From contig JACPIN010000005.1 of NCBI GenBank assembly GCA_016188065.1, positions 13,646 to 77,645 of the forward strand: a stretch of DNA of 64,000 nucleotides. The letters run 5' to 3'. The position numbers and the translations under genes were made by a program. Positions 31,990 to 63,986 of the stretch are shown in pieces. The notes below the pieces were generated by a model. That model saw only the letters and a program-made list of their open reading frames with translations. It was not told where the DNA came from and did not search any database. The number at the start of each line of letters is the position of its first letter. Position 1 is the first letter of the stretch. This DNA is from Candidatus Woesearchaeota archaeon. Its GTDB lineage: Archaea > Nanobdellota > Nanobdellia > SCGC-AAA011-G17 > ARS1403.

Positions 31990-32022
31990 TCATTATGCTG
32001 GAAGAATTTTTAGTTTTTAAAA

Positions 32023-44235: not shown

Positions 44236-44254
44236 ATATTATAGTAGAATAGAT

Positions 44255-48816: not shown

Positions 48817-49173
48817 TTAATCGATTTTTCTCATCCTAATTCCTGCTTCTGAGATAACTAAAAATTTACCACTTAATTCAACCCCCAGTTTTTCTATGAC
48901 ATATAATAAAAGCTTTAGCCTGTTTTCTGGATTGTCTATGTTTAACCTTAAAAGAATGACTCCTTTTGAATGCTTTTTTCTTCTGAAAACTATCTCTCCG
49001 AAGTCTTTATCATTTGTTATCAAAATCCTGTCATCTTTTAATGCCTCCTCTAGAACAATCTCATCATCTGCACCAAGCAAATCTTCACTAATGTATTCCG
49101 TGTCATATCCTTTTTCCCTGAGCGATGAAACTAATTTTCTACCAGTACTTTCATCAACTAGAAACTTTAGCAT
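48817..49173 (-). CDS. DUF5615-like PIN-related putative nuclease (toxin-like partner of DUF433)
   Basis: 118 aa; LKFLVDESTG...ILITNDKDFGEIVF pattern of DUF5615/Mut7-C-like proteins; overlaps the DUF433 gene by 20 nt. Confidence 0.6.
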   Translation of the reverse strand: MLKFLVDESTGRKLVSSLREKGYDTEYISEDLLGADDEIVLEEALKDDRILITNDKDFGEIVFRRKKHSKGVILLRLNIDNPENRLKLLLYVIEKLGVELSGKFLVISEAGIRMRKID

Positions 49174-49417
49174 ATCTCTTTTTTTCTAAGAAGGGCAATA
49201 CTGTTTCTGAACCGACAATTTCAGCACCATACATTAATGCTGCCTTAATGTCCTTCTTATTTATATGAGGATAATCTTCCAATATTTCTCTTTCAGTCAT
49301 TCCTTGTGCAACTAACTTAATAAGTAGGTCCACCGGAATCCTTGTGCCTTTTATTACCGGTTTTCCTACCATAATCTTTGGATTGACAACGATCCTATTT
49401 AATAAGCCTTGATCCAT
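49154..49417 (-). CDS. DUF433-family small protein (antitoxin-like partner)
   Basis: 87 aa; PVIKGTRIPVDLLIKLVAQGMTEREILEDYPHINKKDIKAAL matches the DUF433 signature. Confidence 0.65.
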   Translation of the reverse strand: MDQGLLNRIVVNPKIMVGKPVIKGTRIPVDLLIKLVAQGMTEREILEDYPHINKKDIKAALMYGAEIVGSETVLPFLEKKRYAKVSS

Positions 49418-49755: not shown

Positions 49756-50085
49756 ATGTTAAAAGACAATGAAATTCTTGGATTGGTTGAAAAAGTGAAA
49801 ATAAAAGGCAGGGAGATTTTAGCAAGAGTGGATACTGGGGCCAGAAGATGCAGCATTGACAAGAAGCTTGCAAATGAGTTGAAGCTAGGCCCTGTCATTG
49901 GGAATCGGAAATATAGAAGCGCCCATGGGAAAAGTATTAGGCCTGTTGTTATCGAGGAGATTGAGCTGAAAGGAAAGAAATTAATTGTAAAGATAAACTT
50001 AAGCGATAGGAGAGAGATGAAATACAACTTTTTAGTGGGAAGGGAAGCTTTAAAAAAAGGTTTTCTGATTGACCCTAGCAGATGA
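49756..50085 (+). CDS. Retropepsin-like aspartic protease (the so-called ATP-dependent zinc protease family commonly paired with RimK)
   Basis: 109 aa; ARVDTGARRCSI with a DTGA catalytic motif; immediately upstream of, and overlapping, the RimK-like gene. Confidence 0.55.
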   Translation: MLKDNEILGLVEKVKIKGREILARVDTGARRCSIDKKLANELKLGPVIGNRKYRSAHGKSIRPVVIEEIELKGKKLIVKINLSDRREMKYNFLVGREALKKGFLIDPSR

Positions 50086-51161
50086 GATTGGCTATAATAA
50101 GCTTGGGGGGGACAAGCAGCGAGCTCATTGGGAAAGAGGCTGGAAATTTTTTCAAAAGCGTTGACTTGCTTGACATCAGGAAGATTGAGATTGCTGCCGG
50201 CTCTAAGGAATCAGAGATTTTATATGAAAAAAATCCCTTGAAGGAGTATGACTGCGTTTATATCAGAGGGAGCTTTAATTATGCACTGCTGCAGAGGAGC
50301 CTGACTTTTATTCTTCAAAGCAAGAATGTTTACATGCCATTTAACCCGGATACGTTTACAATTGCGCATGATAAATTCTTAACAACTTTATCTCTGCAGA
50401 AAGCGGGAATTAAAATTCCAAAGACTTATCTTGCTGCGACTATGAAGGATGCTAAGAAGCTGCTTGAAGAGGTGAATTTCCCAATCATAATGAAAGTGCC
50501 TACAGGGACTCAGGGAAAGGGGGTGATGAGCGCTGATTCGCTTGCAAGCGCAAGATCAATGCTTGATACCTTAGAGAGCTTGAGGCAGCCAGTTATTCTG
50601 CAGGAGTATATAGAAACTGATGCTACTGATATAAGAGCAATAGTTGCTGGAAAAAAAGTAATTGCGAGCATGAAGAGAAAGGGAATGAGCGGAGAGATAA
50701 GGAGCAACATACATCAAGGAGGGATTGGAGTTGAATATGAATTAGACTATGACACTGAGAATATTGCAGTTAAAGCTGCTAAATCTGTGAATGCGGAGAT
50801 ATGCGGGGTTGACATCCTTGAAAGCGTTAGAGGTAATGTTGTTATAGAGGTTAACTTAAGCCCGGGGTTGAGAGGGATAATGAATGCTACTAAAAAGAAT
50901 GTTGCCAAATCCATTGCTGAATATTTATTTAAAAAAACTGCTGAATTTAAAAAAACCGAGAAGGATAATGGATATAATGAGATTATGAAGGGGATAAAAG
51001 CTAAAAGCGACAAAGAAGTGCTCACTAACTTAGAGATTAAAGCTGGGAAGATAAGGCTGCCTGAATTGATGACTAAGATGAGCGGGTTTGAAAATGAAGA
51101 GGAGGTTGTTCTAGTTGCTGAGAACGGGAAGATAGAGATAAAGAAGCAGGACATTAAATAA
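50082..51161 (+). CDS. RimK-like ATP-grasp ligase (alpha-L-glutamate ligase family) with C-terminal extension
   Basis: 359 aa; ATP-grasp motifs FPIIMKVPTGTQGKGV and EICGVDILES; about 70-aa extra acidic C-terminal tail. Confidence 0.7.
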   Translation: MRLAIISLGGTSSELIGKEAGNFFKSVDLLDIRKIEIAAGSKESEILYEKNPLKEYDCVYIRGSFNYALLQRSLTFILQSKNVYMPFNPDTFTIAHDKFLTTLSLQKAGIKIPKTYLAATMKDAKKLLEEVNFPIIMKVPTGTQGKGVMSADSLASARSMLDTLESLRQPVILQEYIETDATDIRAIVAGKKVIASMKRKGMSGEIRSNIHQGGIGVEYELDYDTENIAVKAAKSVNAEICGVDILESVRGNVVIEVNLSPGLRGIMNATKKNVAKSIAEYLFKKTAEFKKTEKDNGYNEIMKGIKAKSDKEVLTNLEIKAGKIRLPELMTKMSGFENEEEVVLVAENGKIEIKKQDIK

Positions 51162-51489: not shown

Positions 51490-54189
51490 ATGGAAGAGAG
51501 TTCTGCTAAAGAGGCCTTGAAAAACGATTTCGGAGATAAGGCTTTAGAGGAAAGAAAACAGAAGATTTTTGCTTATTTTAAGAAAGACAAGAAATGGATA
51601 ATCTGGCTGGCTTTTGCTTTTATTGCCTGGTTTGGGTTTTGGATAAGGACCAGGAATATTCCTCTGTTGAAAGATGTTACTACGGGCGATTTTATCCAGG
51701 CAGATCCTGATGCTACTGCTTTCCTGAGATATGCAAAATACATTGTTGAGAATGGAAGATTGATGGATATTGACTTGATGAGGTATTACCCTTGGGGATA
51801 CGGAAACATGGTTGAATTTAAATTACTGAGTTATGCAATTGCTTACTTCTACAAATTCTTGCATTTCTTTAACTCCGATGTTACTGTTGGGTATGCGCAT
51901 GTTCTTTATCCACCTGTAGCTTTTGTAATTGGATTGATATTTTTCTTTTTGCTTGTTAGAAAACTATTTGATTATAGAATTGCTTTGCTTTCTAGTTTAT
52001 TATTGACAATAATTCCCCCGTATCTTTTTAGGACGATAGCCGGCGTGGGGGACAAAGAAGCATTTGGCATGATATTCTTTTTTGCTGCTTTATATTTTTT
52101 TGTTTGCGGCTGGAAGTCAGAAACTCTAAAGAAAAACTTAATTTTTGGAGCACTAGCTGGATTATCGACAGGCGTTATGGGACTTATTTGGGGCGGATTT
52201 GCCTTCGTAGTTACGATAATTGCCATTTTTTGCTTGATAGCTTTTACCTTTCTTGAATTTAACAGGCAAAGATTTTTTTCTTATGCTGTGTGGTATTTTA
52301 TTTTTTATCTAATCATGATTATTTTCAGAGGTTATAGATTAAATACCATAATCGGCGGCTATTATCATGCATTAGCCTTATTTACTTTATTAATTGGGGT
52401 AATTATTTATCTATCTTTAAAATATAACCTCAAAAACCTTATTGAAAAAAAATCCAAATTGCCTTACACAATTTCTATATCCATTTCTGTTATAATTATT
52501 GGGACCATTATTTCGCTGATTGTCATAGGAGGAGAGTTTGTATTTGGGCATATCGAGCAGGTATATGATACCTTAACAAGCCCATTTGGAAACGACCGAT
52601 GGCAATTAACTGTTGCTGAGGCGCATCAGCCATACTTGATTGAATTCATTAACTTTGTGAGCTGGAAATTTTTCTGGATTTATTTCATTGGCTCTATACT
52701 GATGGTTTATTTCTTGTTAAACAAAATAGATAAAAAGACAAGGAGTTGTGGTTTAATTATCTATACTTTATTCATTGTTGGATTTAGCTTTAGCAGATTT
52801 TCTCAGAATTCGAAAATTCTAAACGGAGAAAGCTTCTTTTCACTCAACATTATGTATCTAGGGGGTATTTCTATTGTGATGGTTTCATTCTTAGCCTACT
52901 ATCTTTATACTTACTATAAAAATAAAGAAGTTTTTGAAAAATTAAAGACCTTAGATGATAAATATTTATTTGTATTGATATGGCTGGTTGTCTTGCTTGT
53001 CGGCTCTAGAAGTGCAATAAGATTATTATTTATTTTCTCTACAATCGCATCTTTATTAGCAGCTTACTTTTGCATTAAGCTCTTTGATATTTCGCTTAAA
53101 TTTAAAAAAGATATTTACAAAATTTCAATTTGGATATTTCTAATTCTTGTTTTAGTAAATCCTTTTGCAATTGCCGGAAGTTTTGCTTATGGATTATTTA
53201 ATAAAGGCATCATTCTCGAGCATTCCCAGATAACCTATAATCAGGCAAGATATACTGGAACTGGATATGGCCAGCAATGGCAGATAGCTGGAAAATGGGT
53301 CAGAGAAAATGTGCCTGAAGATGCAATTTTTGCCCACTGGTGGGATTATGGTTATTGGGTGCAAACAAATTTTAATAGAGTAACAGTTACAGATGGGGGG
53401 AATGCTAAAGCTAGTTTAAACCACTATATGGGGAGATATGGGTTAACAGGACAAAATGAATTAGAAGCATTGGAATTTTTCAAAGCCCATAATGTTACCA
53501 ATTTCTTAGCTGTTTCTGATGAAATTGGAAAGTATCCTGCTTTTTCATCAATTGGAAGCGATGAGAATTGGGACAGATATTCCTGGCTGCCCCCCTTCCA
53601 AATGGATACAAGCAAGACTCAAGAAACAAGAGAGTATACTGTTTATGTTTACGGAGGGGTAAGCCCTCTTGATTATGATTTCAGATTCAATGGAGCATTA
53701 TACCCTAAAGGCGGCTCTGCCATAATCGGTTTCTTTATTCCTACAAAAGAAGAGAATGGAACCTTGAAGATAGAAACACCAGCTGCTGCCGTAATAAATC
53801 AAGGACAGCAAAGACAGATTCCACTTGAATGTATTTTTTTCAATGGACAGGAGATTTATTTCAATCAAAAAGGCTTGAAGGGGTGTTTCCATATCTTCCC
53901 TAGTGTTGATGGGCAAAAAGTTAATAATATTGGAGCAGGGATATATGTTTCTGAAAAAGTTAAGAAAACAATATTTGCCCAGCTTTATTTGTTTGGCAAG
54001 CCAGGAAAATATTTTAAATTGGCTTATAGCGATGAAAACCAGATACCCTTGGCACTTTATAACGGAAGATTAATAGGGCCGTTGAAAATCTGGGGGGTTA
54101 CATATCCTGAAAACCTAGGGGTTCCGGAGCATTACTATGAAGATGTGTTGATAAATCCAAATGTAACAAGCTTGGAAGGAAGGTATTAA
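51490..54189 (+). CDS. aglB: Oligosaccharyltransferase AglB (STT3 homolog)
   Basis: 899 aa; 13 TM N-terminal domain; WWDYGYW motif (HWWDYGYWVQ) and downstream DGG/DK-type motif region (TVTDGGNAKAS). Confidence 0.9.
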   Translation: MEESSAKEALKNDFGDKALEERKQKIFAYFKKDKKWIIWLAFAFIAWFGFWIRTRNIPLLKDVTTGDFIQADPDATAFLRYAKYIVENGRLMDIDLMRYYPWGYGNMVEFKLLSYAIAYFYKFLHFFNSDVTVGYAHVLYPPVAFVIGLIFFFLLVRKLFDYRIALLSSLLLTIIPPYLFRTIAGVGDKEAFGMIFFFAALYFFVCGWKSETLKKNLIFGALAGLSTGVMGLIWGGFAFVVTIIAIFCLIAFTFLEFNRQRFFSYAVWYFIFYLIMIIFRGYRLNTIIGGYYHALALFTLLIGVIIYLSLKYNLKNLIEKKSKLPYTISISISVIIIGTIISLIVIGGEFVFGHIEQVYDTLTSPFGNDRWQLTVAEAHQPYLIEFINFVSWKFFWIYFIGSILMVYFLLNKIDKKTRSCGLIIYTLFIVGFSFSRFSQNSKILNGESFFSLNIMYLGGISIVMVSFLAYYLYTYYKNKEVFEKLKTLDDKYLFVLIWLVVLLVGSRSAIRLLFIFSTIASLLAAYFCIKLFDISLKFKKDIYKISIWIFLILVLVNPFAIAGSFAYGLFNKGIILEHSQITYNQARYTGTGYGQQWQIAGKWVRENVPEDAIFAHWWDYGYWVQTNFNRVTVTDGGNAKASLNHYMGRYGLTGQNELEALEFFKAHNVTNFLAVSDEIGKYPAFSSIGSDENWDRYSWLPPFQMDTSKTQETREYTVYVYGGVSPLDYDFRFNGALYPKGGSAIIGFFIPTKEENGTLKIETPAAAVINQGQQRQIPLECIFFNGQEIYFNQKGLKGCFHIFPSVDGQKVNNIGAGIYVSEKVKKTIFAQLYLFGKPGKYFKLAYSDENQIPLALYNGRLIGPLKIWGVTYPENLGVPEHYYEDVLINPNVTSLEGRY

Positions 54190-54190
54190 A

Positions 54191-54829
54191 ATGCCGGAAA
54201 TTTACGAAGAAGATTATCATAGGATTATACATAAACATTTATTACAAGATGAAAAATATTATCTATTTAGAGCAAAACATGCTACTAAAAGCTATTGGAA
54301 GCATTTAAACGGGAAAGTTTTGGAATTTGGGTGTGGAATTGGACAGAATATTTATCTTCAAAAAGATAAAGCAATTGGGCTAGACATCAGTAACTTTTGC
54401 AAAAATGAATGTGAGAAAAGAGGAATTAAGATAGTTCAAGATTCTAGGAAAATAAAAGATAATTCTTTTGATAGCATATTAGCCTGCCATGTGTTGGAGC
54501 ATATGGAGAATCCTGCTGAGATATTAAGAGAATTTCATAGGCTGCTTAACGATAGTGGCAGATTAGTTTTGGTTCTGCCGGTATCTTGCCATAACAAACC
54601 TTATAGAAACTGGAAGTCAGATAGATCAAAACACTTATTTCAATGGAATTTTGCTGCCATTAATGAGCTTCTGCATTTCATTGGATTTAAAATAAAATTA
54701 AATAGCTTTAATTACGCTTATGGCTATTCTATTTTTTATAAATTGCCTTTTTTTATTGGATATAATTCTCTTCAGCTATCTGGATTTTTGAGAAATAGAA
54801 AAGAGATGATTATTGTTGCAGATAAATAA
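54191..54829 (+). CDS. Class I SAM-dependent methyltransferase (Methyltransf_11-like)
   Basis: 212 aa; VLEFGCGIGQN motif I and ILACHVLEHMENP motif. Confidence 0.65.
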   Translation: MPEIYEEDYHRIIHKHLLQDEKYYLFRAKHATKSYWKHLNGKVLEFGCGIGQNIYLQKDKAIGLDISNFCKNECEKRGIKIVQDSRKIKDNSFDSILACHVLEHMENPAEILREFHRLLNDSGRLVLVLPVSCHNKPYRNWKSDRSKHLFQWNFAAINELLHFIGFKIKLNSFNYAYGYSIFYKLPFFIGYNSLQLSGFLRNRKEMIIVADK

Positions 54830-54864
54830 ATTTAAATACGTTAACTATTGTTAATTTAAATAAG

Positions 54865-55959
54865 ATGAATCTTGCCAGAATTGCCTTAAATTCGTATGTG
54901 TTAAAAAAAGAACCTATCAGTTTGATACACTTTGTTACAAATAAATGCAATGCCAGATGCAAGCACTGTTTTATAGATTTTGATCATCCTGATGTTTTCA
55001 AAGGCGAGCTTACATTAGAAGAGATAGATAAACTTACTAAGAGTTTTGGAAGGTCTATGCTTAATGTTAATCTTACAGGTGGAGAGCCGTTTTTGAGGAA
55101 GGATTTTTTTGAGATCGTGAAGATGTATTTTGAAAATGCAGGCATCAGGTCTGTTTACATAACAACAAACGGGATGTTTACACAATTAACAAAGAACTTT
55201 ATTGATAAATTCATTGAATCTGGAATAAAGGGAAATGTAATACTTTCATTTTCTATTGATAATTTTGAGGAAGGACATGATGAAAACAGGAGAGTTAAAG
55301 GACTATATCAAAACACATTAAAGACTTATGAGCTTGTGAAGAGCTATCATCTGCCAAATATAATGGCTAATATCTCGATAACTGTAACAGACCATAATTA
55401 TGATAGGGTTATAGATTTATACCATTATTTAAAAGATGTAAAAAAAGTAGATGCATTCACAGCAATTGCCATGCGTGAAGAGGGAGTTATTAAAAAAATA
55501 GACCCAGCAGTTAAACAAAATATTGGGATAGCTTATGCGAGACTGACTAATCTTATAAAAGAAGGCATGCTGAAAGATGAGATTGACGGCTATAAAAAAG
55601 AAGGTCTCCAGGGAACTTTGCTTAATTCTAAAAATATGATCATGTATAAAAACATAGCTGAATCTTATATTAAGCCGCATTATATATCTCATTGCCCTGC
55701 CGGCGCATTATTTGGAGTTATCTGGGCAAATGGAATGGTCTATCCCTGTGAAGTCCTTAATAAGCCACTTGGGAACTTAAGGGATTATAATATGAATTTC
55801 ATGGAACTATGGAAAAATGAAAAGACTAAAGATGTTAAGAAGTTTATTAAAGATACGGACTGTAACTGTACCTTTGAATGCGCATGGGCAATAAATATTA
55901 TCTCAAATAAAAGATATATCCCCTCTTTGATAAAAAATTCTATTAAACAAAAAATCTGA
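54865..55959 (+). CDS. Radical SAM enzyme with C-terminal SPASM-like Cys cluster
   Basis: 364 aa; CNARCKHC (CxxxCxxC); C-terminal CPAG...CEV...CNCTFEC auxiliary cluster pattern. Confidence 0.75.
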   Translation: MNLARIALNSYVLKKEPISLIHFVTNKCNARCKHCFIDFDHPDVFKGELTLEEIDKLTKSFGRSMLNVNLTGGEPFLRKDFFEIVKMYFENAGIRSVYITTNGMFTQLTKNFIDKFIESGIKGNVILSFSIDNFEEGHDENRRVKGLYQNTLKTYELVKSYHLPNIMANISITVTDHNYDRVIDLYHYLKDVKKVDAFTAIAMREEGVIKKIDPAVKQNIGIAYARLTNLIKEGMLKDEIDGYKKEGLQGTLLNSKNMIMYKNIAESYIKPHYISHCPAGALFGVIWANGMVYPCEVLNKPLGNLRDYNMNFMELWKNEKTKDVKKFIKDTDCNCTFECAWAINIISNKRYIPSLIKNSIKQKI

Positions 55960-56899
55960 TAATTCCACTAATCATTCCAGTTGTCCACGACATATTTCTG
56001 AGGATTATGACAAACATTGATTTTACAGAAGATATAATCCCTTCTTTCTTAGATATATAATTAATAAGGCTAAAATCGAGGAGCAAGATTATTATGAGCA
56101 GAAATGGAATGAGATAAACAATTGTAGAATAAAAAAAACTTAAAACTATATTTAACTCTAAAATAGCTGTATAAAATATTACAAACTTGTTTTTTTCTTC
56201 CTGATAGGTCTTTATTTTTTTTAAATTTGGTTTTCTTAAATAGAGATAGATTGTGTCTCTTGCAAACCTATACTGCTGCTTAATGTATTTTTTAAGCCCT
56301 TTATGGAAGTGGTGCTTTATACCTAAATTCTTGTCCCAAAATATTTTATATTTTCTTCCAACTTCCAAGCTAAATTCTAAATCTTCAGCTACGTAATTTT
56401 TTTGCTCAGAAAATCCTTTTTCTTTAATGAAGATTTCTCTGTTGCATGCGAAATTATTTGATGGAAAAGAGGTTATAGGATTTGAGAGGTTTTTTCTCCG
56501 TATTAATAACTCATAGAAAGCATATTTTTCTAAAAAGGTATTTCCTACTGAGCCTGAATATCCGTCGCATATAAATTCTGCTTTTCTATTTTTGAAATCT
56601 GCCATGATTTTTGACAGCCAATCTTTAGGAAGAATGCAATCTGAATCTGTAAATGCCAGATATTTTGTTAAAGCCTGCTGTGCGCCGATGTTTCTTGCTT
56701 TGCCTTGTCCTGAACGCTGATTTAGTTTTATTATTTTATATCCATATTCTTGAGTTACCTGTGCTGAGTTATCTGTCGAGCAATCGTCGATTAAAATAAC
56801 ACCATAGTTTTTATAATTTTGCGCTTTTACTGAATCAAGGCATTTCCTTAAAGTTTTTTCTGCATTATACATGGGGATTATAATTGTTATTTCAGCCAT
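55943..56899 (-). CDS. Family 2 glycosyltransferase with C-terminal TM helices
   Basis: 318 aa; IIIPMYNAEKTL...LIDDCSTDNS and DSDC (DxD) motifs. Confidence 0.8.
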   Translation of the reverse strand: MAEITIIIPMYNAEKTLRKCLDSVKAQNYKNYGVILIDDCSTDNSAQVTQEYGYKIIKLNQRSGQGKARNIGAQQALTKYLAFTDSDCILPKDWLSKIMADFKNRKAEFICDGYSGSVGNTFLEKYAFYELLIRRKNLSNPITSFPSNNFACNREIFIKEKGFSEQKNYVAEDLEFSLEVGRKYKIFWDKNLGIKHHFHKGLKKYIKQQYRFARDTIYLYLRKPNLKKIKTYQEEKNKFVIFYTAILELNIVLSFFYSTIVYLIPFLLIIILLLDFSLINYISKKEGIISSVKSMFVIILRNMSWTTGMISGIIRFFV

Positions 56900-56951
56900 C
56901 TTAAAGAAGCCACTAAGTTAATCTTATAAATATTCTTACTAAATAAACGTT

Positions 56952-57662
56952 ATGAAAAGTGTTGACATTGTTATCCCTATCTACTATAATAACATTGATG
57001 AAATTGAGCCGAGTGTTAGAGAACAAATTGATTTCTATAAAAAAAATCTGAAAGAGTATAGATGGAAAATTGTAATCGGTATTAACGGACTTGATAAAAA
57101 TGGCATCGTTGAAAAGGTAGAAGACCTTTCTAAGAGATATGAAAATGTTGCCTATGATTATACTGATCAAGCAGGAAGGGGGGCTTCTTTGAATAGGACT
57201 TTTGTCAACAGCAAGGCTGATTTTGTTTGTTACATGGATGTTGATCTTGCCACTGGGTTGGATGCTGTTCCCAGAATGCTAAAAGAGCTAGAATATTACG
57301 AAGTTGTTGTTGGCTCAAAATATATTAAGGATGCAAAATATAATCGGACACCCCTAAGATTTGTACTTTCTAAAATCTACAACTTAATTATCACAAAGTT
57401 AATTTTAAATGCTAAGTTCAGTGATGCTCAATGTGGTTTTAAGGGGATGCACACTTTAATAGCTAGAGAGATTATGCCACTTGTAGAGGACAAGGGGTGG
57501 TTTTTAGATACCGAGATTTTATATATTGTTCAGAAAAAAGGATACAAATTTAAGGAGATCCCTGTCCACTGGATTGAAAGAGAAAATAGTGGTGTTAAGC
57601 TGCTCAAAACTGTAAAAGATTTTACTGTTAAAACAATTAGATTGAGATATAGAAATCTTTAA
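56952..57662 (+). CDS. GT2 dolichyl-phosphate glycosyltransferase (DPM1/AglD/AglJ-like)
   Basis: 236 aa; VDIVIPIYYN..., MDVDLATG DxD-type motif; soluble DPM1-like size. Confidence 0.7.
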   Translation: MKSVDIVIPIYYNNIDEIEPSVREQIDFYKKNLKEYRWKIVIGINGLDKNGIVEKVEDLSKRYENVAYDYTDQAGRGASLNRTFVNSKADFVCYMDVDLATGLDAVPRMLKELEYYEVVVGSKYIKDAKYNRTPLRFVLSKIYNLIITKLILNAKFSDAQCGFKGMHTLIAREIMPLVEDKGWFLDTEILYIVQKKGYKFKEIPVHWIERENSGVKLLKTVKDFTVKTIRLRYRNL

Positions 57663-57684
57663 AATAAGTTCTTTCAGTTTAATT

Positions 57685-58716
57685 TTGATGAAATATTTGA
57701 AAGATGCATATTCCGGCAAGAGAATATTGATTACTGGTGGTCTGGGATTTATGGGTAGCAATCTTGCACACAAACTTGTAGAATTTGATTCGGATGTTGT
57801 GATATTTAATAGAGAGATATGCACTCAACCCTATGGGGCAAATGCTTACAATATTGAAGGCATAAAAGATAAGGTAAAATTAAGAATAGGGGATATTAGA
57901 GATGATCAAATAAAAGAACTGATTACGGGACAGGATATCATTTTTCATCTGGCTGGCCAGGTTGGGCATTATAATAAATCTGACCCATTATTCCAAACTT
58001 ATATCAAAGATGCTGAAAGCATTAACATTGATGGAACATTTAATCTGCTTTCTTTATGTAGAGATTCCAATCCTGGTGCCAGAATTATTTATGCAGGGTC
58101 TAGTTTTCAATATGGAAATCCGAAATATGTTCCTGTCGATGAGAAACATCCAGCAAATCCTGATAGGAATAACCTTTATGCAACTTCAAAACACCAAGCC
58201 GATATCTTGTTTGAGACTTTTCATAATAGATTCGGGTCAGATACCGTAAGACTAAGAATAGCAAATCCATATGGTCCAAGAGCTCAGATGAAACATCCTA
58301 ATTATGGATTTTTAAATTGGTTTATAAGAAGAGCAATTGATGGACAGCCCATAGAAATTTTTGGAAGCGGTGAACAAAAGAAGGATATGATATACATAGA
58401 TGACCTTGTTGATGCTTTCTTGTTTGTTTCTGCAGATCAAAAAACAAATGGAGAAGTTTTTAATGTTGGCTCCGGAATTGGGCATAGCATTAAAGAATTA
58501 GCTGAAATTGTTGTTGACACTGTTGGTAGCGGTGAAGTTAAATTCATTGGAAATGCATGTATCCCTGAAAAATATAAAAACACTGGCATGCCCAGTTATA
58601 TTTCTGATATAAGCAAGATCAAAACTATGACGGGTTGGGTTCCTTTAATTGACATTGCCGAAGGAATAAAGCGAACAATTGAATTTTACAGAGAAAATAG
58701 AAAATACTATTGGTGA
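57685..58716 (+). CDS. NAD-dependent nucleotide-sugar epimerase/dehydratase (SDR)
   Basis: 343 aa; ITGGLGFMGSNL Rossmann motif, catalytic YATSKHQAD (YxxxK). Confidence 0.85.
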   Translation: MMKYLKDAYSGKRILITGGLGFMGSNLAHKLVEFDSDVVIFNREICTQPYGANAYNIEGIKDKVKLRIGDIRDDQIKELITGQDIIFHLAGQVGHYNKSDPLFQTYIKDAESINIDGTFNLLSLCRDSNPGARIIYAGSSFQYGNPKYVPVDEKHPANPDRNNLYATSKHQADILFETFHNRFGSDTVRLRIANPYGPRAQMKHPNYGFLNWFIRRAIDGQPIEIFGSGEQKKDMIYIDDLVDAFLFVSADQKTNGEVFNVGSGIGHSIKELAEIVVDTVGSGEVKFIGNACIPEKYKNTGMPSYISDISKIKTMTGWVPLIDIAEGIKRTIEFYRENRKYYW

Positions 58717-60197
58717 ATTTTATGAAGAAGGTTCCTGATAAATGGCTTTACTTGCCTGCCTTAATACTTTGGGCATATCTTATAATAAGATTGATAGATC
58801 AATCCAAACTTCTCTTTTACTTCCCTCTAGATTATACTAATGATATAAGCTCTTACATGGCTCAGCTATTTTTTCTAGATAAATGTGGCTTTCATCAATT
58901 TTGTCCATATTGGTACAATGGATTTACTGCTTTCCAGTTTACTCCTCCTGCCTGGTTTTTTTTTACTTTACCATTATACTGGATGTTTAATGATGTTAAG
59001 ATTGCAACTTATGTCTCGATGATTTTGGTATTTATAATCGGCTTAGTATCGTTTATTTTATTTGGTCGATTATTTAACCTTTCTTTTGTAAAAAGATTAG
59101 CTTACTTCATATTCTTTTTCGGTAATGCTATTGCCATTGGGAATTTCATAAGGCTAGGAGACTTGCATCAACTCTTTGGATGGGTTAATCTTGCGATCCT
59201 ATCATTTATTGTTCTCTATTATAAGGACAGAGAAATCAAAACAAGATTTTATTGGAGTATTTTGTTTTTAAGCATTGTAATTTTATCTCATCAAACAACT
59301 TCCATTTTAGCTCCATTTATCTTAGTCGGCTTATTTTTTATAAAAAATAGTAAAGAAAAACTAAAAATTTTTGCTGTCGGCTTACTCTCTTTGATAATCA
59401 CTAGTTTTTGGTGGGTCCCCTATGTTACTGGGTTCTGGAAAACCTCTGGGAGCAGCCACCTTCTTACTAAAAGTTTGCTTTCTTTAGACATAAGAGATTT
59501 ACCCCAAAATATTGCTACAGTTATCATCCCATTGGCTTTTCTAGTTATATTTTATTTTTACTGGAATACATATAATAGACGAAGGAGTGAACTTCTATTT
59601 TTTACTCCCATTATTTTTCTGTCTTTAATTCTGCTTCTCAGAGTCGCCTATTTTATCCCTATATTGAAATACGTTTATCCAGATTCCTATCTCCATTTAT
59701 TTATTTTTTTTACACTGTTCATGTTTTTTCAGCTGGATGTGGAACTTATTAAATTAAAAAAATTTATTCCAGCTACCCTGATAATCCTCTCACTAATTAG
59801 TGCCTCCATAGGGCTATTTTATACTCCAAATTTCGTGACACCAAATAATGTTGGAGATAGAACTATCGAAATTCTCGATGATGTTGACGATAAGTTTATA
59901 ATTTTCGGAAAAGGAACTGAAGTATATAACAAGGCAGTATATTCTTATGCACCAATCTATTTGAATTTGTCAACGCCTGAAGGATGGTATTTTATTTTTG
60001 ATGAAGAACAACTGGAACTTTCCCGTAAAACTCGAATTGATTTGGAAAATGAAAACTGTGCTGAGCTGGATAATGATTTGAATCTTATAGGAGCCAAATA
60101 TACTATTGCATATGATGAACAATGTGAAATCCTCGACAAATGCGATTTTGCTGAAAAAGGAAGCCTAGAAAATGTTTGCTTATATTATGCTGATTAG
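58710..60197 (+). CDS. Large polytopic membrane protein with soluble C-terminal domain; possible GT-C glycosyltransferase or polymerase
   Basis: 495 aa, more than 10 TM; location inside the glycosylation locus; no firm motif. Confidence 0.3.
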   Translation: MVNFMKKVPDKWLYLPALILWAYLIIRLIDQSKLLFYFPLDYTNDISSYMAQLFFLDKCGFHQFCPYWYNGFTAFQFTPPAWFFFTLPLYWMFNDVKIATYVSMILVFIIGLVSFILFGRLFNLSFVKRLAYFIFFFGNAIAIGNFIRLGDLHQLFGWVNLAILSFIVLYYKDREIKTRFYWSILFLSIVILSHQTTSILAPFILVGLFFIKNSKEKLKIFAVGLLSLIITSFWWVPYVTGFWKTSGSSHLLTKSLLSLDIRDLPQNIATVIIPLAFLVIFYFYWNTYNRRRSELLFFTPIIFLSLILLLRVAYFIPILKYVYPDSYLHLFIFFTLFMFFQLDVELIKLKKFIPATLIILSLISASIGLFYTPNFVTPNNVGDRTIEILDDVDDKFIIFGKGTEVYNKAVYSYAPIYLNLSTPEGWYFIFDEEQLELSRKTRIDLENENCAELDNDLNLIGAKYTIAYDEQCEILDKCDFAEKGSLENVCLYYAD

Positions 60198-60239
60198 GCT
60201 TTAGAAATCTTTTTATAAGGATTCATTGATAAACGAAAT

Positions 60240-61262
60240 ATGAGATTTGTGCTGATAACAAGCATGCTAGTATCTTTCTTTACTGTAATTTACATCACTC
60301 CCTGGCTGATTCGCTATCTGATAAGAATAGGACTCATTGTCAAAGATCAGAATAAAGATGGAAAACCTTTAGTCCCAATTTCCGGTGGGATGGCTGTCTT
60401 ATCTGGATTTTTTACCGGGTTGATGTGTTTTATTTTTCTTACTACTTTCTTTCCTGATGGAAATAAATTAGTTTTAGACAATAAAGTACTTATGTTTCTT
60501 TTGAGCAGCACTATCTCAATAATCATGATTACTTTTGTAGGTTTCATTGATGATTTGATAATTCGCAGAGATAATGAAAGTTCGTCTGGATTGAAACAGT
60601 GGCAAAAGCCTTTACTGACTTTAGCTGCAGCTATTCCACTCATGGTCGTGAATTCTGGCGTCAGTACGCTTTCTGTTCCTGTTTTTGGCAGAGTGGACAT
60701 TGGATTGATCTATCCATTAATCTTTATTCCCATTGGTGTTGTAGGTGCTGCCAACATGGTAAATATGCTGGCTGGTTTCAATGGTCTTGAGACTGGAATG
60801 GGGATTATCTATACAGGAATGCTTGGAGTTTATGCATATTTTAATATGGAAGGCTTATTTTTAGCAGAAAGAACTTCTGCTGTAATCATATCTGCTGTTG
60901 TGTTTTCATCTTTAATCGCTTTTTATATCTTTAACAGGTATCCTGCTAGGATCCTTCCTGGTGATTCTCTCACTTATCTTCTAGGAGGAATCTTGGCAAG
61001 TATTGCAATCGTTGGGAATTTGGAGAAGGCTGCTTTAATCCTGTCTATTCCATTTTTAATAGAACTAATTTTGAAAATGAGGGGAAGGTTTAAGAAACAG
61101 AGTTACGGATATTATCTCAATGGTAAGGTTAAGTCACACTATGATAAAATTTATTCCCTCCCACATATTTTTACTAAAACCGGAAGATTCACAGAAAAAC
61201 AAATAGTCTATTTTTTCGTAGTACTGGAGCTGATCTTTGGCGGCTTGATATGGATTGTTTAA
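60240..61262 (+). CDS. GT4-family polyprenyl-phosphate hexosamine-1-phosphate transferase (MraY/WecA/AglH-like)
   Basis: 340 aa; DDLIIRRD, VNMVNMLAGFNGLETG motifs of the MraY/WecA superfamily. Confidence 0.75.
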   Translation: MRFVLITSMLVSFFTVIYITPWLIRYLIRIGLIVKDQNKDGKPLVPISGGMAVLSGFFTGLMCFIFLTTFFPDGNKLVLDNKVLMFLLSSTISIIMITFVGFIDDLIIRRDNESSSGLKQWQKPLLTLAAAIPLMVVNSGVSTLSVPVFGRVDIGLIYPLIFIPIGVVGAANMVNMLAGFNGLETGMGIIYTGMLGVYAYFNMEGLFLAERTSAVIISAVVFSSLIAFYIFNRYPARILPGDSLTYLLGGILASIAIVGNLEKAALILSIPFLIELILKMRGRFKKQSYGYYLNGKVKSHYDKIYSLPHIFTKTGRFTEKQIVYFFVVLELIFGGLIWIV

Positions 61263-62537
61263 ATGTTAAATCTTATAAAACTTCATTTGAATAAGAATAA
61301 AAGATTAATTAAAGAAAATCTAATACTCTTTTTGGCTATTACTTTTGCTAATCTGCTCAATTATTTATTCCATTTTTATGTTGGTAGAATTCTAGGTCCT
61401 GAAGAGTACGGTGTTTTTGGCGTTCTGCTTTCGATAGTTTACCTTCTTGTTATGCCTTTGATGGCGGTTCAAACAATCTTTTCCAAATATGTTGCTGAAT
61501 TGAAAGTTGATAGTAATGAAAAGAAAATATCCTATTTATTTTATCGTTCTTTTAGAAAGATTTTATTTGTTGGGATAATCTTCAGCATTATTTTTCTTAT
61601 GATAAGCCCTTTTTTGTCTCATTTCTTAAAAATTGGAAGCGTCACTCCATTAATTATTTTGGGGATATCAATTACTTTTATTTTTTTGATTCCTCTTCTG
61701 CGCGGCTTCATTCAAGGACTGCAGAACTTTCCTTTGCTTGGCGCGACATTTATAAGCGAAGGTCTGACAAAAGTCATTCTTGGTGTTCCATTAGTATTGT
61801 TAGGCTTTGGTATTACCGGTGCTATTGGTGCATTCGCCATTAGCTTTTTCCTACCATTCATCATCCTATCTTATTTTCTAAGAAAGATGCTTACAAGGGA
61901 TAGGGAAAAGTTTGATACCTCTAAAATTTACGGTTATTCTTTTCTCGTAATTATTATGCTAGTAAGCCTAACTGGATTTTATACTACGGATTTAATTCTT
62001 GTAAAATTATTCCTTGATCCTATAGAGGCAGGCTATTATGCAGCCTTAAGTTTATTTGGAAAGATAATATTTTTTGCTTCCATGTCTATAAGTATGGTCA
62101 TGTTTCCTAAACTTTCTGAACTTAATCTGCAGAAGAAGGATACTAGAACTTTATTATTGAAATCAGTTTTAATTGCAGTTGTTTTGGGAGGGATAATTAG
62201 CTTATTTTATTTTTTAATTCCTACATTTATTATTGGCTTGTTATTTGGAGGAGGATACTTATTAATATCGAATCTACTGTGGATCTTTGGGATAATGATG
62301 ACAATCTATTCGATTGTCTATTTGCTTTCTTACTATAATATGGCCCTTCATCGAGAAAGTTTCCTCTATCTGCTATTTTCTTTTAATTTGCTTCAGACAA
62401 TCTTGATTATTCTATTTCATAAAACAATAACGCAAGTTGTAGTAAGCTTAATAATCGTTATGTCTTTGCTATTTTTAGGGATGGTTGTATATACTTTAAA
62501 AAATGAGAAATCTATCGATAATTATTCCGGCATATAA
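61263..62537 (+). CDS. MOP-superfamily oligosaccharide flippase (Wzx/AglR-like)
   Basis: 424 aa, about 12-14 TM, typical flippase size and position next to the GT4 phosphotransferase. Confidence 0.55.
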   Translation: MLNLIKLHLNKNKRLIKENLILFLAITFANLLNYLFHFYVGRILGPEEYGVFGVLLSIVYLLVMPLMAVQTIFSKYVAELKVDSNEKKISYLFYRSFRKILFVGIIFSIIFLMISPFLSHFLKIGSVTPLIILGISITFIFLIPLLRGFIQGLQNFPLLGATFISEGLTKVILGVPLVLLGFGITGAIGAFAISFFLPFIILSYFLRKMLTRDREKFDTSKIYGYSFLVIIMLVSLTGFYTTDLILVKLFLDPIEAGYYAALSLFGKIIFFASMSISMVMFPKLSELNLQKKDTRTLLLKSVLIAVVLGGIISLFYFLIPTFIIGLLFGGGYLLISNLLWIFGIMMTIYSIVYLLSYYNMALHRESFLYLLFSFNLLQTILIILFHKTITQVVVSLIIVMSLLFLGMVVYTLKNEKSIDNYSGI

Positions 62538-63195
62538 TGAAGGTAAAAGAATAAGCTCGGTGCTGGAGTCTATTCTTAGATTCTTTGGGGAGGATGTAAA
62601 TGTACTAGTTGTTTCAAATGGGAGTAAAGATGATACTGTAAAAATCCTTATAGATTGGAAAACCAAACATAAAAATCTTAATTTCTTAGAGTTTTCTGAA
62701 AAACTTGGCAAGGGCGGAGCGATAGTTGAGGGATTAAAGATTGTTAATAGTGATCTTATCGGATTCATAGATGCTGATGATGCATTTGATCTCGGATATA
62801 TAAAAAAAATACTGGATGAATCAAATGATAGGTTTGATTGTATTATTGCATCCAAGTGGAAAGGAAGAAACTTTTTTCAAGTTAATGAGCCTAAATTAAG
62901 AAAAATATTGAGTAGGGGCTGGAATCTTTTTGTTAGGATTTTTTTAAATTTGGAGTATAGGGATACGCAGGCAGGCGCAAAATTTTTTAAGAAAAAAGTC
63001 AAGGATTCTATCGGATTTAATTTTATCTCGACTGGTTTTGCTTTCGATGTTGAATTATTAAAGAAAATCCAGAATAAGAAATTTCATATAGAAGAGGTTT
63101 ACGTCCCCAGTAAACATATAGAAGGAAGTACTTTTAAAATTCGGCATTGCTCTAATATGCTTAAAGACTTAATAAATATCTGGAGACATGGATGA
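62503..63195 (+). CDS. GT2 dolichyl-phosphate glycosyltransferase
   Basis: 230 aa; LSIIIPAYNEGKRI, FIDADDAFD DxD motif. Confidence 0.8.
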   Translation: MRNLSIIIPAYNEGKRISSVLESILRFFGEDVNVLVVSNGSKDDTVKILIDWKTKHKNLNFLEFSEKLGKGGAIVEGLKIVNSDLIGFIDADDAFDLGYIKKILDESNDRFDCIIASKWKGRNFFQVNEPKLRKILSRGWNLFVRIFLNLEYRDTQAGAKFFKKKVKDSIGFNFISTGFAFDVELLKKIQNKKFHIEEVYVPSKHIEGSTFKIRHCSNMLKDLINIWRHG

Positions 63196-63986
63196 AATAT
63201 TGCTTGTTAACCTTTGACTTAGAGGAATTTGATCTACCCTTGGAATATGGTAAAGACATAAAATCTGTTGAGATGTTTCATATCAGTTACTTCGGCTGCA
63301 GAAAAGTATTGGAAATTTTGGAGAAGAATAAGGTTAAAGGTACATTTTTTGTGAGTGCTTTGTTTGCATTGAAGTATCCGGAATTGATAAAAGAAATTTC
63401 TTTACATCATGAGATTGGATTGCATTGCTTTGAACATAAAGATAATTATAAAAAGATGGATAATGATGGGGTTTTTGAAAAATTAAGCAAAGCAAAAGAT
63501 AGTATTGAAAAGATCACGAAGAAAAAAATTCTGGGCTTTAGGGCGCCGAGATTTCAAGTCCCTAGTTATAAGATATTAAGGGATATCGGTTTTGGATATG
63601 ACAGCTCCTACCATCCTACGTATATCCCAAAAAGATATAATAACTTCTTTAAAACTAGGAAGGGCTTCAATAAAGAAGGCGTTAATATTTTACCTTTGTC
63701 AGTATCCCCCATATTAAGGCTCCCATTATTCTGGCTAGCCTTTAGAATTTTACCTCTCTCTTATTCAAAAGTAGTTACAAGAATTTGTCTTATGGCTGAT
63801 GGTTATGCATCCCTGATTTTTCATCCTTGGGAATTCGCAGATATCAAAAGAGATGATCTCCCAATGATTGTCAAAAGGAATTCTGGCAATGACCTTTGTT
63901 TGAAACTTGATAGGTATATAGGATGGAACCTAAAAAATAAAATTTCGTTTATAACTATGTCAGATTATCTATCTAAAAATTTATAG
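63192..63986 (+). CDS. Polysaccharide deacetylase-like (CE4/DUF3473-like) protein
   Basis: 264 aa; N-terminal LLTFDLEEFD resembles the TFDVEDYF start of DUF3473/CE4 deacetylases; His-rich segments. Confidence 0.4.
   Translation: MKYCLLTFDLEEFDLPLEYGKDIKSVEMFHISYFGCRKVLEILEKNKVKGTFFVSALFALKYPELIKEISLHHEIGLHCFEHKDNYKKMDNDGVFEKLSKAKDSIEKITKKKILGFRAPRFQVPSYKILRDIGFGYDSSYHPTYIPKRYNNFFKTRKGFNKEGVNILPLSVSPILRLPLFWLAFRILPLSYSKVVTRICLMADGYASLIFHPWEFADIKRDDLPMIVKRNSGNDLCLKLDRYIGWNLKNKISFITMSDYLSKNL

Follow-up and report, generated by a model that had tools for sequence, protein, structure and literature searches.

The region spanning positions 51490-63986 of the window, the 64,000-nucleotide stretch of DNA analyzed here, is a protein N-glycosylation gene cluster from a DPANN (Woesearchaeota-like) archaeon. 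It combines a conserved AglB-methyltransferase-GT-C core with an accessory cassette formed by a radical SAM enzyme and a GT2 glycosyltransferase. Pfam and NCBIfam searches recovered the assigned domains in all 11 open reading frames at the coordinates given below and, together with the AglB motifs, support the aglB-centered toolkit for lipid-linked oligosaccharides proposed in the initial annotation. The genes, all on the plus strand except one, form an operon-like array headed by aglB, with catalytic motifs intact; neighboring genes overlap or stand at most 52 nt apart between 54189 and 57685, and the junctions between 61262 and 63195 are 1 nt or overlapping. This arrangement is no chance grouping, as the same gene set is found again in close relatives (loci L001-L003 and L088/L089; radical SAM enzymes 84-90% identical). 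On balance, we lean towards the view that this is the main agl locus and that the radical SAM enzyme and its GT2 act as one cytoplasmic-face unit on a sugar of the N-glycan precursor.

The first gene encodes an AglB/STT3 oligosaccharyltransferase (51490..54189; 899 aa) with about 11 transmembrane (TM) segments and a C-terminal globular domain, matching PF02516 at 57.9 bits (cut-off 24.5). Its catalytic motif, WWDYGYW, occupies residues 617-623, the first loop carries the DP motif ADPDA (residues 71-75), and GDKE aligns to the YDNE of STT3; TVAE is also present. All of its homologues are AglB/STT3 proteins of DPANN archaea, and it is strongly divergent, scoring 104 bits against TIGR04154 (cut-off 450). 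Only 1 nt past the aglB stop begins the gene for a class I SAM-dependent methyltransferase (54191..54829; 212 aa; Methyltransf_23/11) with the motif VLEFGCGIGQN. An orthologue (51-59% identity) overlaps or directly trails aglB in L172, L173, and L174, whose AglB proteins are 51-70% identical to that of the window.

Downstream of the cassette, a short soluble GT2 without predicted TM segments (56952..57662; 236 aa; PF00535, 44.4 bits) shows weak NCBIfam matches to AglJ and to dolichyl-phosphate hexose transferases, which makes it a candidate dolichyl-phosphate-hexose synthase or glycan-extending glycosyltransferase. It is followed by an extended-SDR NDP-sugar epimerase, dehydratase, or decarboxylase (57685..58716; 343 aa; PF01370, 155 bits), which by sequence comes closest, within the PDB, to UDP-glucose 4-epimerase and UDP-glucuronate decarboxylase (E about 1e-33). 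The next gene (58710..60197; 495 aa, or about 491 aa if translation starts at the ATG at 58722) encodes a membrane glycosyltransferase of a DPANN-specific family, which had been described as a possible GT-C protein. A Pfam search gave no matches in the window protein itself, and some of its homologues contain PF10131, a member of the Pfam GT-C clan. The GT-C assignment now gains support from an AlphaFold2 model (pLDDT 92.6), for which Foldseek returns AftA, STT3, AglB, AftD, and ArnT; three residues of the first external loop, D38, N41, and D42, do not vary across the family.

The priming enzyme of the locus is a polyprenyl-phosphate HexNAc-1-phosphate transferase of the AglH/WecA/MraY family (60240..61262; PF00953, 113.5 bits; about 8 predicted TM segments). 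The label "GT4 phosphotransferase" given to it earlier was right about the phosphotransferase and wrong if read as CAZy family GT4, as Pfam Glycos_transf_4 denotes the MraY/WecA/AglH phospho-sugar transferases. The remaining genes encode a Wzx/MOP-type flippase (61263..62537; 424 aa, 12 TM segments; PF01943, PF13440), a short soluble GT2 resembling DPM synthase, PpgS, and AglJ (62503..63195; 230 aa; PF00535, 95.2 bits), and a polysaccharide (HexNAc) deacetylase (63192..63986; 264 aa; PF01522, 52.1 bits), the last complete gene inside the window. The second of these scores 52 bits against PpgS and 47 bits against AglJ in NCBIfam and matches the Pyrococcus DPM synthase 5mlz in the PDB with an E-value of 1.9e-8. 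The window end cuts the cluster, which runs further in relatives: in L001, L088, and L172, a minus-strand PMT_2 GT-C gene comes after the deacetylase.

Several of these components, namely Wzx, PF00953, the GT2s, the deacetylase, and the PMT_2-type GT-C, are shared with pathways of the O-antigen and O-mannosylation types. The downstream genes are variable as well, with 38-82% identity between close relatives versus about 90% for AglB, the methyltransferase, and the radical SAM enzyme, as is seen in O-antigen loci. The locus might accordingly be read as building mainly a non-N-linked surface polymer (an exopolysaccharide, O-linked glycan, or lipoglycan) beside an incidental aglB, a reading that we consider improbable. 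An aglB with intact motifs heads the array; loci with AglB identities of 62-70% (L172, L173) retain the shared gene set, and one at 51% (L174) its core; Wzy and Wzz chain-length genes were not identified; and archaeal N-glycosylation typically shows such strain-level variation in its agl clusters (PMC11407970). Surface proteins encoded in the window are plausible recipients of the glycan; of two signal-peptide proteins, one carries 10 sequons where 9.4 are expected and the other 17 where 10.5 are expected.

The radical SAM gene (54865..55959; 364 aa) encodes Radical_SAM and SPASM domains and belongs to a GT2-linked family of about 1,375 clusters at 50% identity, distributed over bacteria and archaea. 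The earlier description of a SPASM-type enzyme stands as far as these domains go; the SPASM domain is, however, degenerate (reduced or twitch-like), with 5 conserved auxiliary cysteines versus 7-8 in full SPASM domains. Across 154 family sequences, the CX3CX2C motif, four auxiliary cysteines, and D132/H138/R142 are near-invariant, and the family has its own signatures, the cysteine pattern C-X17-C ... CxCx3C and the motif S-I-D-x5-H-D-x2-R. In NCBIfam, every match lies far under its cut-off and no curated family fits, the best matches being NirJ2 and AhbD.

An enzyme of this type could, in principle, be a protein or peptide maturase, either formylglycine-making and anSME-like or of the sactipeptide/ranthipeptide RiPP type, with the GT2 glycosylating the modified peptide. 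SkfB, PapB, and other maturases do appear among the weak NCBIfam matches, the closest structural matches include the peptide-modifying SkfB, SuiB, and anSME, and L090 has a sulfatase gene 7 kb from its radical SAM gene. We nevertheless judge this reading very improbable. All family scores are 3- to 8-fold under cut-off; the CX3CX2C motif begins at residue 28, leaving the enzyme without an N-terminal RRE (peptide-recognition) domain; the auxiliary cysteines are 5 rather than 7-8; the gaps beside the gene, at most 52 nt, leave no space for a precursor gene; and no sulfatase was found among the scanned open reading frames of the window, which included every one of at least 320 aa. The anSME model TIGR03942 is not among the best 25 NCBIfam matches of the window protein, and it reaches 46-47 bits in two relatives (cut-off 349). 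A role as anaerobic sulfatase maturase or peptide maturase was therefore rejected, and with it the sulfatase-maturase-like activity offered as an alternative in the initial annotation. The enzyme groups with neither anSME nor the peptide maturases, and its proposed link to glycosylation holds through its conserved partner, a GT2.

This family almost always adjoins, or is fused with, a GT2 in both bacteria and archaea. In a sample of loci drawn from at most 600 pattern matches per scan, rather than a census, a GT2 directly adjoins the radical SAM gene in 21 of 22 orthologous loci (36-66% identity) and is next to or fused with it in 53 of 77 more distant relatives, making it the sole conserved neighbor over 100 loci. 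The GT2-radical SAM fusion proteins are real, as Pfam confirms; among the best 150 representatives, five proteins are over-long, and every one of them is such a fusion. Hydropathy profiles of three fusions (L057, L043, and L083) indicate a probable two-TM hairpin between the GT2 and radical SAM domains, which would place both on the same, cytoplasmic, side.

In the window, the adjoining gene (55943..56899, minus strand) encodes a membrane-anchored GT2 of 318 aa with a C-terminal TM region (PF00535, 123 bits; weaker PF13632 and PF13506). This gene converges on that of the radical SAM enzyme, and the last 17 nt of each overlap. Judged from sequence, this GT2 belongs to the radical SAM-partnered type: 38 of its 40 best matches among the open reading frames of the fetched loci are GT2s adjoining or fused with radical SAM enzymes of the family, and the GT2 halves of the fusion proteins likewise find their best match in it. 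Because it is just 24% identical to the GT2 partnering the orthologous radical SAM clade and runs towards the radical SAM gene instead of in parallel with it, adjacency and family type are the basis for pairing the two in the window. It is probably the functional partner of the radical SAM enzyme.

Comparison across Woesearchaeota aglB loci separates core from accessory genes. Loci with AglB identities of 51-70% again contain the AglB-methyltransferase-GT-C core, accompanied by genes for AglH, Wzx, GT2, and PMT_2 proteins: L172 and L173 (62-70%) share AglB, the methyltransferase, the GT-C, AglH, Wzx, and one GT2 (GT2c), and L174 (51%) retains the core and a gene weakly similar to GT2c. The close relative L172 (AglB 70%) has no radical SAM-GT2 cassette, which is therefore dispensable for N-glycosylation as such. 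Synteny of the radical SAM gene with aglB in relatives, a point raised in the initial annotation, is kept at radical SAM identities of at least 83% and absent from all 22 orthologous loci at 36-66%. Neither aglB nor the methyltransferase lies nearby in those loci, and the methyltransferase and the radical SAM enzyme do not form a conserved pair: the methyltransferase travels with aglB, and the radical SAM enzyme travels with the GT2.

The cassette also stands alone in unrelated neighborhoods (L005, L006, L091) and occurs in many bacteria without AglB, so its product need not be an N-glycan residue. It may be merely housed in the glycan locus and make its own product, such as a glycosylated small molecule or a glycolipid with a modified head group, an alternative that we regard as possible but rather unlikely. 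The radical SAM enzyme would then create or remodel an acceptor for the GT2 to glycosylate, or, in the manner suggested for HpnJ and calditol synthase, would remodel a sugar bound to a lipid; these two enzymes, however, are radical SAM enzymes of another type, with a B12-binding domain. Precedents for the former order are HpnH followed by HpnI in hopanoid synthesis, MftC followed by MftF in mycofactocin, and ArsS with an MftF-like glycosyltransferase in arsenosugars; radical SAM enzymes working with GT2s on lipids have been reviewed (PMC13459092), and adenosylation by ArsS is described in PMC13598754. The partner GT2s score best against MftF (up to 97 bits) and the TIGR04283 glycosyltransferase, and PF13506, of the ceramide-glucosyltransferase type, also matches them. 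These scores are nonetheless far under cut-off (87-97 bits versus 280 for MftF; 71 versus 182 for TIGR04283), and the neighborhood showed neither MftA/MftB-like nor arsenic genes. Moreover, three separate aglB loci of Woesearchaeota, namely those of the window clade, L173, and L175, contain the cassette in differing forms and independent arrangements, and its presence in the more distant L173 and L175 backs a role in the N-glycan.

Under this preferred N-glycan role, we infer the following order of steps, substrate, and chemistry. The PF00953 enzyme would prime dolichyl phosphate with HexNAc-1-phosphate at the cytoplasmic face, and GT2 enzymes would extend the glycan, with the SDR enzyme supplying a modified NDP-sugar. 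The aglB-coupled methyltransferase may methylate a glycan residue, and the deacetylase may remove one N-acetyl group. The radical SAM enzyme and the GT2 at 55943-56899 would work as a unit on the cytoplasmic side: the GT2 would place a sugar on a membrane-bound acceptor, and the radical SAM enzyme, with the help of one auxiliary [4Fe-4S] cluster and a 5'-deoxyadenosyl radical, would alter that sugar or its nucleotide-sugar donor; oxidation, epimerization, dehydration, and decarboxylation are candidate reactions. The Wzx-type protein would flip the lipid-linked glycan, AglB would transfer it to the sequon asparagine of secreted proteins, and the GT-C enzymes (58710-60197 and the PMT_2 protein just past the window) could add outer sugars extracellularly from dolichyl-phosphate-sugars made by the short soluble GT2s. 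If this reading is correct, the cassette is responsible both for adding one sugar to the N-glycan precursor and for remodeling it by radical chemistry.

The nearest known counterparts of the locus are archaeal agl clusters centered on aglB, among them the Methanococcus agl genes and the cluster of Haloferax volcanii, which comprises aglB, aglJ/G/I/E/D, the methyltransferase AglP, AglR as a putative flippase, and AglS of the GT-C type. The window locus likewise places aglB beside a priming phospho-sugar transferase, GT2s, a SAM methyltransferase, and a flippase, together with GT2s resembling dolichyl-phosphate-sugar synthases and a GT-C potentially capable of extracellular sugar addition. Its gene content differs between strains, as in Haloferax (PMC11407970). 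It departs from known agl clusters in its DPANN lineage, its very divergent AglB, a methyltransferase joined to and conserved with aglB, a DPANN-specific GT-C family, and the presence of a radical SAM enzyme. Literature searches found no paper combining radical SAM, AglB, N-glycosylation, and archaea, and nothing on topic for radical SAM with oligosaccharyltransferase and archaea.

The cassette itself resembles the mycofactocin (MftC/MftF), arsenosugar (ArsM/ArsS/TIGR04283 glycosyltransferase), and hopanoid (HpnH, HpnI, HpnJ) systems in coupling a radical SAM enzyme with an MftF/HpnI-like membrane GT2. It differs from the first two in its MftF and TIGR04283 scores given above, in an MftC score of 49.5 bits versus 265, and in a locus without MftA/B/D/E or arsenic genes. 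A SAM methyltransferase adjoins the pair in the window, as in the ArsM-ArsS-GT cassette, but here it belongs with aglB. With BlsE (cytosylglucuronate decarboxylase), BtrN, DesII, and AhbD/NirJ, the radical SAM enzyme shares a partial TIM-barrel core, a CX3CX2C motif near the N-terminus, and a C-terminal cysteine-rich domain. Its first two auxiliary cysteines are spaced C-X17-C, as they are in BtrN. It is, however, just 17-23% identical to these enzymes and has its own cysteine pattern, and its family is marked by a GT2 linkage or fusion that they do not have.

The interval 51490-63986 holds eleven closely packed ORFs in a window of AT-rich composition (about 33% GC). The initial annotation had read it as an N-glycosylation locus, and Pfam and NCBIfam returned the same gene assignments: an AglB/STT3 protein (51490-54189, plus strand), a class I SAM methyltransferase (54191-54829, plus), a Radical_SAM plus SPASM protein (54865-55959, plus), a 318-aa GT2 ending in a membrane region (55943-56899, minus; Pfam), two short soluble GT2s (56952-57662 and 62503-63195, both plus), an extended-SDR epimerase/dehydratase (57685-58716), a PF00953 phospho-sugar transferase (AglH, 60240-61262), a Wzx-type flippase (61263-62537) and a PF01522 deacetylase (63192-63986). 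The AglB protein scores 57.9 bits against PF02516 (gathering score 24.5) and, slightly under the cut-off, 21.3 bits against the PF21436 core domain (cut-off 23), and its multi-spanning N-terminal part, with about 11 predicted hydrophobic segments, is followed by a C-terminal globular domain. All catalytic motifs expected of AglB/STT3 are present: an acidic first-loop motif (ADPDA at 71-75) lies ahead of the STT3-aligned segment, GDKE occupies the YDNE position and WWDYGYW that of WWDYGY, and a TIXE-type motif appears as TVAE. Assignment to the archaeosortase-A-associated subfamily TIGR04154 was rejected (104 bits in NCBIfam, cut-off 450), and by its sequence the protein is placed in a divergent DPANN AglB clade. 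The closest homologues of AglB (P0243, 81% identical) and of the radical SAM protein (P0004, 84%) are both annotated as Candidatus Woesearchaeota or Nanoarchaeota, which makes a DPANN archaeon the very probable source. AglB, a priming phosphoglycosyltransferase, glycosyltransferases and a flippase are kept together in relatives, and the locus is a genuine N-glycosylation cluster, a DPANN version of an already known type.

The remaining ORF encodes a 495-aa membrane protein (58710-60197, plus) with no Pfam match; PF10131, a Pfam family of the GT-C clan, is carried by some of its homologues only. Its AF2 model (pLDDT 92.6) matches AftA, STT3, AglB, AftD and ArnT in Foldseek with a probability of 1.0 and TM-scores of 0.5-0.58, and residues D38, N41 and D42 of the first external loop are invariant. 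With its membrane fold, acidic first-loop residues and C-terminal extracytoplasmic domain, the protein is a predicted GT-C glycosyltransferase.

The radical SAM protein belongs to its superfamily by a CX3CX2C motif, a GGE motif and a partial TIM-barrel: C28, C32, C35 and G72-G73-E74 are invariant, PF04055 scores 75.9 bits, and the AF2 model (pLDDT 91.4) matches radical SAM structures. The cluster motif (residues 28-35) is preceded by one helix only, and a start at residue 28 leaves no space for an RRE domain N-terminal to it. The Pfam SPASM match is marginal (25.3 bits against 21.5); the region has five conserved cysteines, C277-X17-C295 ... C333-x-C335-x3-C339, and the canonical two-cluster SPASM arrangement (7-8 Cys, CX9-15GX4C ... 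CX2CX5CX3C ... C) was therefore rejected. Across 154 aligned relatives, the most distant 24% identical, practically no variation is seen in the three SAM-cluster cysteines or in C277, C295, C333 and C335; about 90% have C339, and more than 94% have D132, H138 and R142 (motif SIDx5HDx2R), a pattern that points to one family with one probable twitch-like auxiliary cluster. Foldseek places anSMEcpe first (TM-score 0.6, 21% identity), then SkfB, SuiB and BlsE, a likeness to SPASM/twitch proteins that is generic only.

Whether this protein could instead be a peptide or protein maturase bears directly on the initial annotation, which had named grouping with anSME or peptide maturases as a finding that would tell against its reading. 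No such grouping appeared. For the window protein and five relatives every NCBIfam model scored far under its cut-off, the best matches of the window protein being NirJ2 and AhbD (about 87 bits against 500). As an anSME it was rejected, with TIGR03942 outside the best 25 NCBIfam matches and at 46-47 bits against 349 in two relatives; no PF00884 sulfatase was detected by Pfam among the scanned window ORFs. As a RiPP maturase it was likewise rejected (SkfB 69 bits against 300, PapB 64 against 340), and no precursor-peptide gene was found, the gaps flanking the radical SAM gene being at most 52 nt. These sub-threshold scores, the lack of an RRE domain, of a precursor gene and of a sulfatase in the window, and a GT2 as the sole conserved neighbour lead us to reject the maturase explanation.

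That neighbour emerged from 170 loci around relatives of the radical SAM protein, drawn from genomes and metagenomes as a sample of the profile matches listed, with ORFs classified by our own scripts and neighbours counted only for loci with at least 1.2 kb on either side of the gene. Among 22 sampled orthologues (36-66% identical), a GT2 is adjacent or fused in 21, mostly directly downstream and co-directional, and neither aglB nor the methyltransferase gene lies nearby in any; among 77 sampled distant relatives (<36%), a GT2 is adjacent or fused in 53 (six fused), mostly directly upstream, aglB is nearby in none and the methyltransferase gene in one. The unusual glycan tailoring that the initial annotation had attributed to the radical SAM enzyme and methyltransferase beside aglB survives as an idea, but the radical SAM gene travels with the GT2 and not with aglB or the methyltransferase gene. 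Its synteny with aglB, loss of which had also been named as counting against that reading, holds at 84-90% radical SAM identity but not at 36-66%, with few loci at 60-80%, where the matches listed include few close Woesearchaeota relatives. When neighbours were clustered, no third gene proved to be conserved beside the pair, the next most frequent family occurring in at most 7 of 81 loci, and the pair stands alone amid unrelated genes in a proteobacterium (L005), a member of Woesearchaeota (L006) and a further locus (L091). Our findings show that this radical SAM family is strictly coupled in evolution to a membrane GT2.

The fusions make the same association within single proteins. Those at loci L057 and L043 are true GT2-Radical_SAM-SPASM proteins by Pfam, and among the best 150 of 1,375 family representatives all five over-long proteins have this architecture. 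In the fusions of L057, L043 and L083 the hydropathy profile indicates a probable two-helix hairpin between the domains, so both domains would face the cytoplasm. The fusions P0464 (558 aa) and P0488 (618 aa) are too short for such a membrane hairpin, and soluble forms of the pair may thus exist.

In the window, the radical SAM gene is followed by the 318-aa GT2 gene on the opposite strand, the 3' ends overlapping by 17 nt; the same convergent arrangement occurs at L091 and L008. With the GT2 beside the orthologous radical SAM clade, the window GT2 shares just 24% identity. When compared with all ORFs of the sampled loci, 38 of its 40 best matches are GT2s adjacent or fused to a radical SAM gene (the locus's two short GT2s give 17/40 and 6/12), and the GT2 halves of the fusions find their best match in it. 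Because of these matches, we infer that 54865-55959 and 55943-56899 form one functional cassette.

A profile search of 1.84 billion representatives returned 1,375 clusters of the radical SAM family at E <= 1e-30 (about 1,375 at 50% identity), and this GT2-linked family is large, lacks curated annotation and is common to bacteria and archaea. It ranges from SAR11-type marine bacteria to Woesearchaeota, with carriers that include Pelagibacterales, Melainabacteria, Planctomycetota, Omnitrophota, Geobacter, Chitinophagales, Poseidoniia and Nanoarchaeia. Bacterial copies, from a Planctomycetota MAG (L017, 8001-9086, 60% identical), Omnitrophica (P0041) and the cultured bacterium in which P0069 (52%) is annotated, Anaerobacterium chartisolvens, share 52-60% identity with the window protein. 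Values this high are unusual between domains and point to horizontal transfer of the cassette. A profile scan of viral contigs found generic radical-SAM-core matches and no cassette, and the GC content of the cassette (0.30-0.36 throughout) carries no foreign-origin signature of recent arrival.

The locus encodes the components of a pathway that builds a lipid-linked oligosaccharide and has AglB as its last step. The PF00953 enzyme would prime dolichyl phosphate, the GT2s would lengthen the glycan and the SDR enzyme may supply a modified NDP-sugar, while the aglB-coupled methyltransferase could methylate one glycan residue; the glycan would then be flipped by Wzx and transferred by AglB, as predicted, to the Asn of N-X-S/T. 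The soluble GT2s may produce dolichyl-phosphate-sugars for GT-C enzymes working outside the cell, and a comparable dolichyl-phosphate-sugar route involves AglD, AglR and AglS in Haloferax. The deacetylase could trim a HexNAc. Within the cassette, the GT2 would attach a sugar to a membrane-bound acceptor; this sugar, or its donor, would be altered by the radical SAM enzyme via hydrogen abstraction, the auxiliary cluster of the enzyme possibly acting as an electron sink. Candidate outcomes are oxidation to a keto-sugar, epimerisation, dehydration or, as in BlsE, decarboxylation of a uronic acid. That the locus builds a polymer other than an N-linked glycan is unlikely, because aglB heads the conserved array.

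A broader proposal, somewhat less likely than not, is that the GT2-linked radical SAM proteins, often fused, constitute a so far unrecognised class of glycan- or glycolipid-modifying radical enzymes, that a mobile cassette of two genes has spread them between bacteria and archaea, and that in DPANN archaea they add a radical-derived change to a sugar of N-linked glycans. Were this so, the cassette would provide N-glycosylation with its first radical SAM step. Our literature searches joining radical SAM with AglB or oligosaccharyltransferase, or SPASM with glycosyltransferase, found nothing relevant. Alternatively, the cassette might make a separate glycolipid or a glycosylated small molecule, as its solitary occurrence in other genomes would allow. 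Its GT2s score highest against MftF and TIGR04283, and radical SAM enzymes that act with a GT2 have precedents in HpnH/HpnI/HpnJ, MftC/MftF and ArsS (PMC13459092; PMC13598754). We consider such a separate product doubtful, given that the cassette lies inside three different Woesearchaeota aglB loci. Specific identities drawn from these precedents were rejected: for a mycofactocin system, TIGR03962 and TIGR03965 gave 49.5 bits against 265 and 87 against 280, and the cluster ORFs contain no MftA/B-like genes; for an arsenosugar cassette, the TIGR04283 glycosyltransferase model gave 71 bits against 182 and an ArsM-related model 17.9 against 575, and the ArsS model is absent from the NCBIfam matches listed for the locus. 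An arsenosugar-like unit of methyltransferase, radical SAM and glycosyltransferase genes is rejected as well, as the methyltransferase follows aglB and every score falls under its cut-off.

Beyond the closest relatives, aglB loci share a conserved core of AglB, methyltransferase and GT-C, the methyltransferase gene starting at most 12 nt from the aglB stop or overlapping it. Locus L172 (AglB 70% identical) reads RimB-like protease, RimK, AglB, methyltransferase, GT-C, second methyltransferase, GT2, SDR, AglH, Wzx, GT2, deacetylase and PMT_2; it has neither the radical SAM gene nor the membrane GT2, and by blastn window positions 54827-58775 have no counterpart there. The marine locus L173 (62%) reads AglB, methyltransferase, GT-C, GT2 (plus), radical SAM (minus, 34% identical to the window protein), GT2 (minus), GT2, AglH, Wzx, GT2 and PMT_2. 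At L174 (51%), RimB, RimK, AglB, methyltransferase, GT-C, methyltransferase and GT2 are followed by a B12-binding radical SAM gene, and at L175 (47%), RimB, RimK and AglB precede two B12-binding radical SAM genes, two GT2s, a radical SAM/SPASM gene of the window family (28% identical), a methyltransferase and an SDR. Radical SAM genes are thus recurrent yet variable accessories of Woesearchaeota aglB loci. The B12-binding type (467-506 aa) recurs at L174 16400-17848 and L175 14581-17730, and at L090 12147-13550 one adjoins a radical SAM plus GT2 pair, two PF01522 deacetylases and ferredoxins, which suggests that several radical enzymes share in DPANN glycan tailoring.

Directly upstream of aglB, at 49756-51161 (plus), lie genes for a RimB-like aspartyl protease and a RimK-type ATP-grasp ligase, a position they also hold at L172 8501-9955, L174 8585-9978 and L175 8566-9968 (loci whose AglB is 70% to 47% identical); SpoIIM and AI-2E transporter genes often come before them. 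Locus L001 lacks the pair and has toxin-antitoxin-like genes there instead. The stretch that separates the housekeeping genes from the aglB locus carries two paralogous AAA_14/DUF4143 ATPase genes and a DUF5615/Mut7-C toxin-like gene (42666-45550 and 48817-49417, minus). This region is variable, since L001 has HepT/nucleotidyltransferase toxin-antitoxin genes at the matching spot.

Two window proteins with signal-peptide-like N-termini and sequons are plausible candidate AglB substrates: a 585-aa protein (18003-19760, minus; 17 N-X-S/T sequons against 10.5 expected) and an 860-aa PKD-domain protein (32023-34605, minus; 10 against 9.4). The former ends in a Peptidase_S74 (endosialidase chaperone) domain, typical of tail-fibre-like or self-cleaving surface proteins. 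The latter, secreted protein is adjoined by a GT28/Glyco_trans_1_3-type glycosyltransferase and a PIG-L family de-N-acetylase, and 30088-34605 (minus) may be a second, separate glycoconjugate module. At 38011-39632 (minus) genes for a GHMP kinase and a sugar-phosphate nucleotidyltransferase overlap, and the pair could feed NDP-sugar to the glycosylation genes. Scans of the whole window (1-64000) detected no tRNA genes and no Rfam families at gathering score.

The most interesting result lies partly beyond the window, in the large uncurated family of GT2-coupled radical SAM proteins; being well delimited, it offers a specific, testable prediction of new radical sugar chemistry, and the homologue in Anaerobacterium chartisolvens, a cultured bacterium, makes experiments feasible. 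To our knowledge, DPANN N-glycosylation is almost unstudied. DPANN episymbionts depend on their cell surface, and the locus gives a concrete conserved core of AglB, methyltransferase and GT-C with variable tailoring modules.

The closest contigs (L001-L003 and L088/L089) have the same gene set, with radical SAM proteins 84-90% identical to that of the window; there a minus-strand PMT_2-type GT-C gene comes after the deacetylase gene, so the cluster runs on and the window cuts the locus. Compared with L001, AglB (92.5%), the methyltransferase (90.6%) and the radical SAM protein (89.8%) are highly similar, and identity drops steeply at the radical SAM/GT2 boundary, to 64% for the membrane GT2, 59-82% for other genes and 38% for the GT-C protein, encoded at another position. 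This gradient looks as if the glycan-assembly genes of the locus had recombined or been replaced by other alleles. Archaeal N-glycosylation clusters of related strains have a conserved head and then a variable assembly block (PMC11407970), and the window locus follows the same pattern of a steady head and a variable block.
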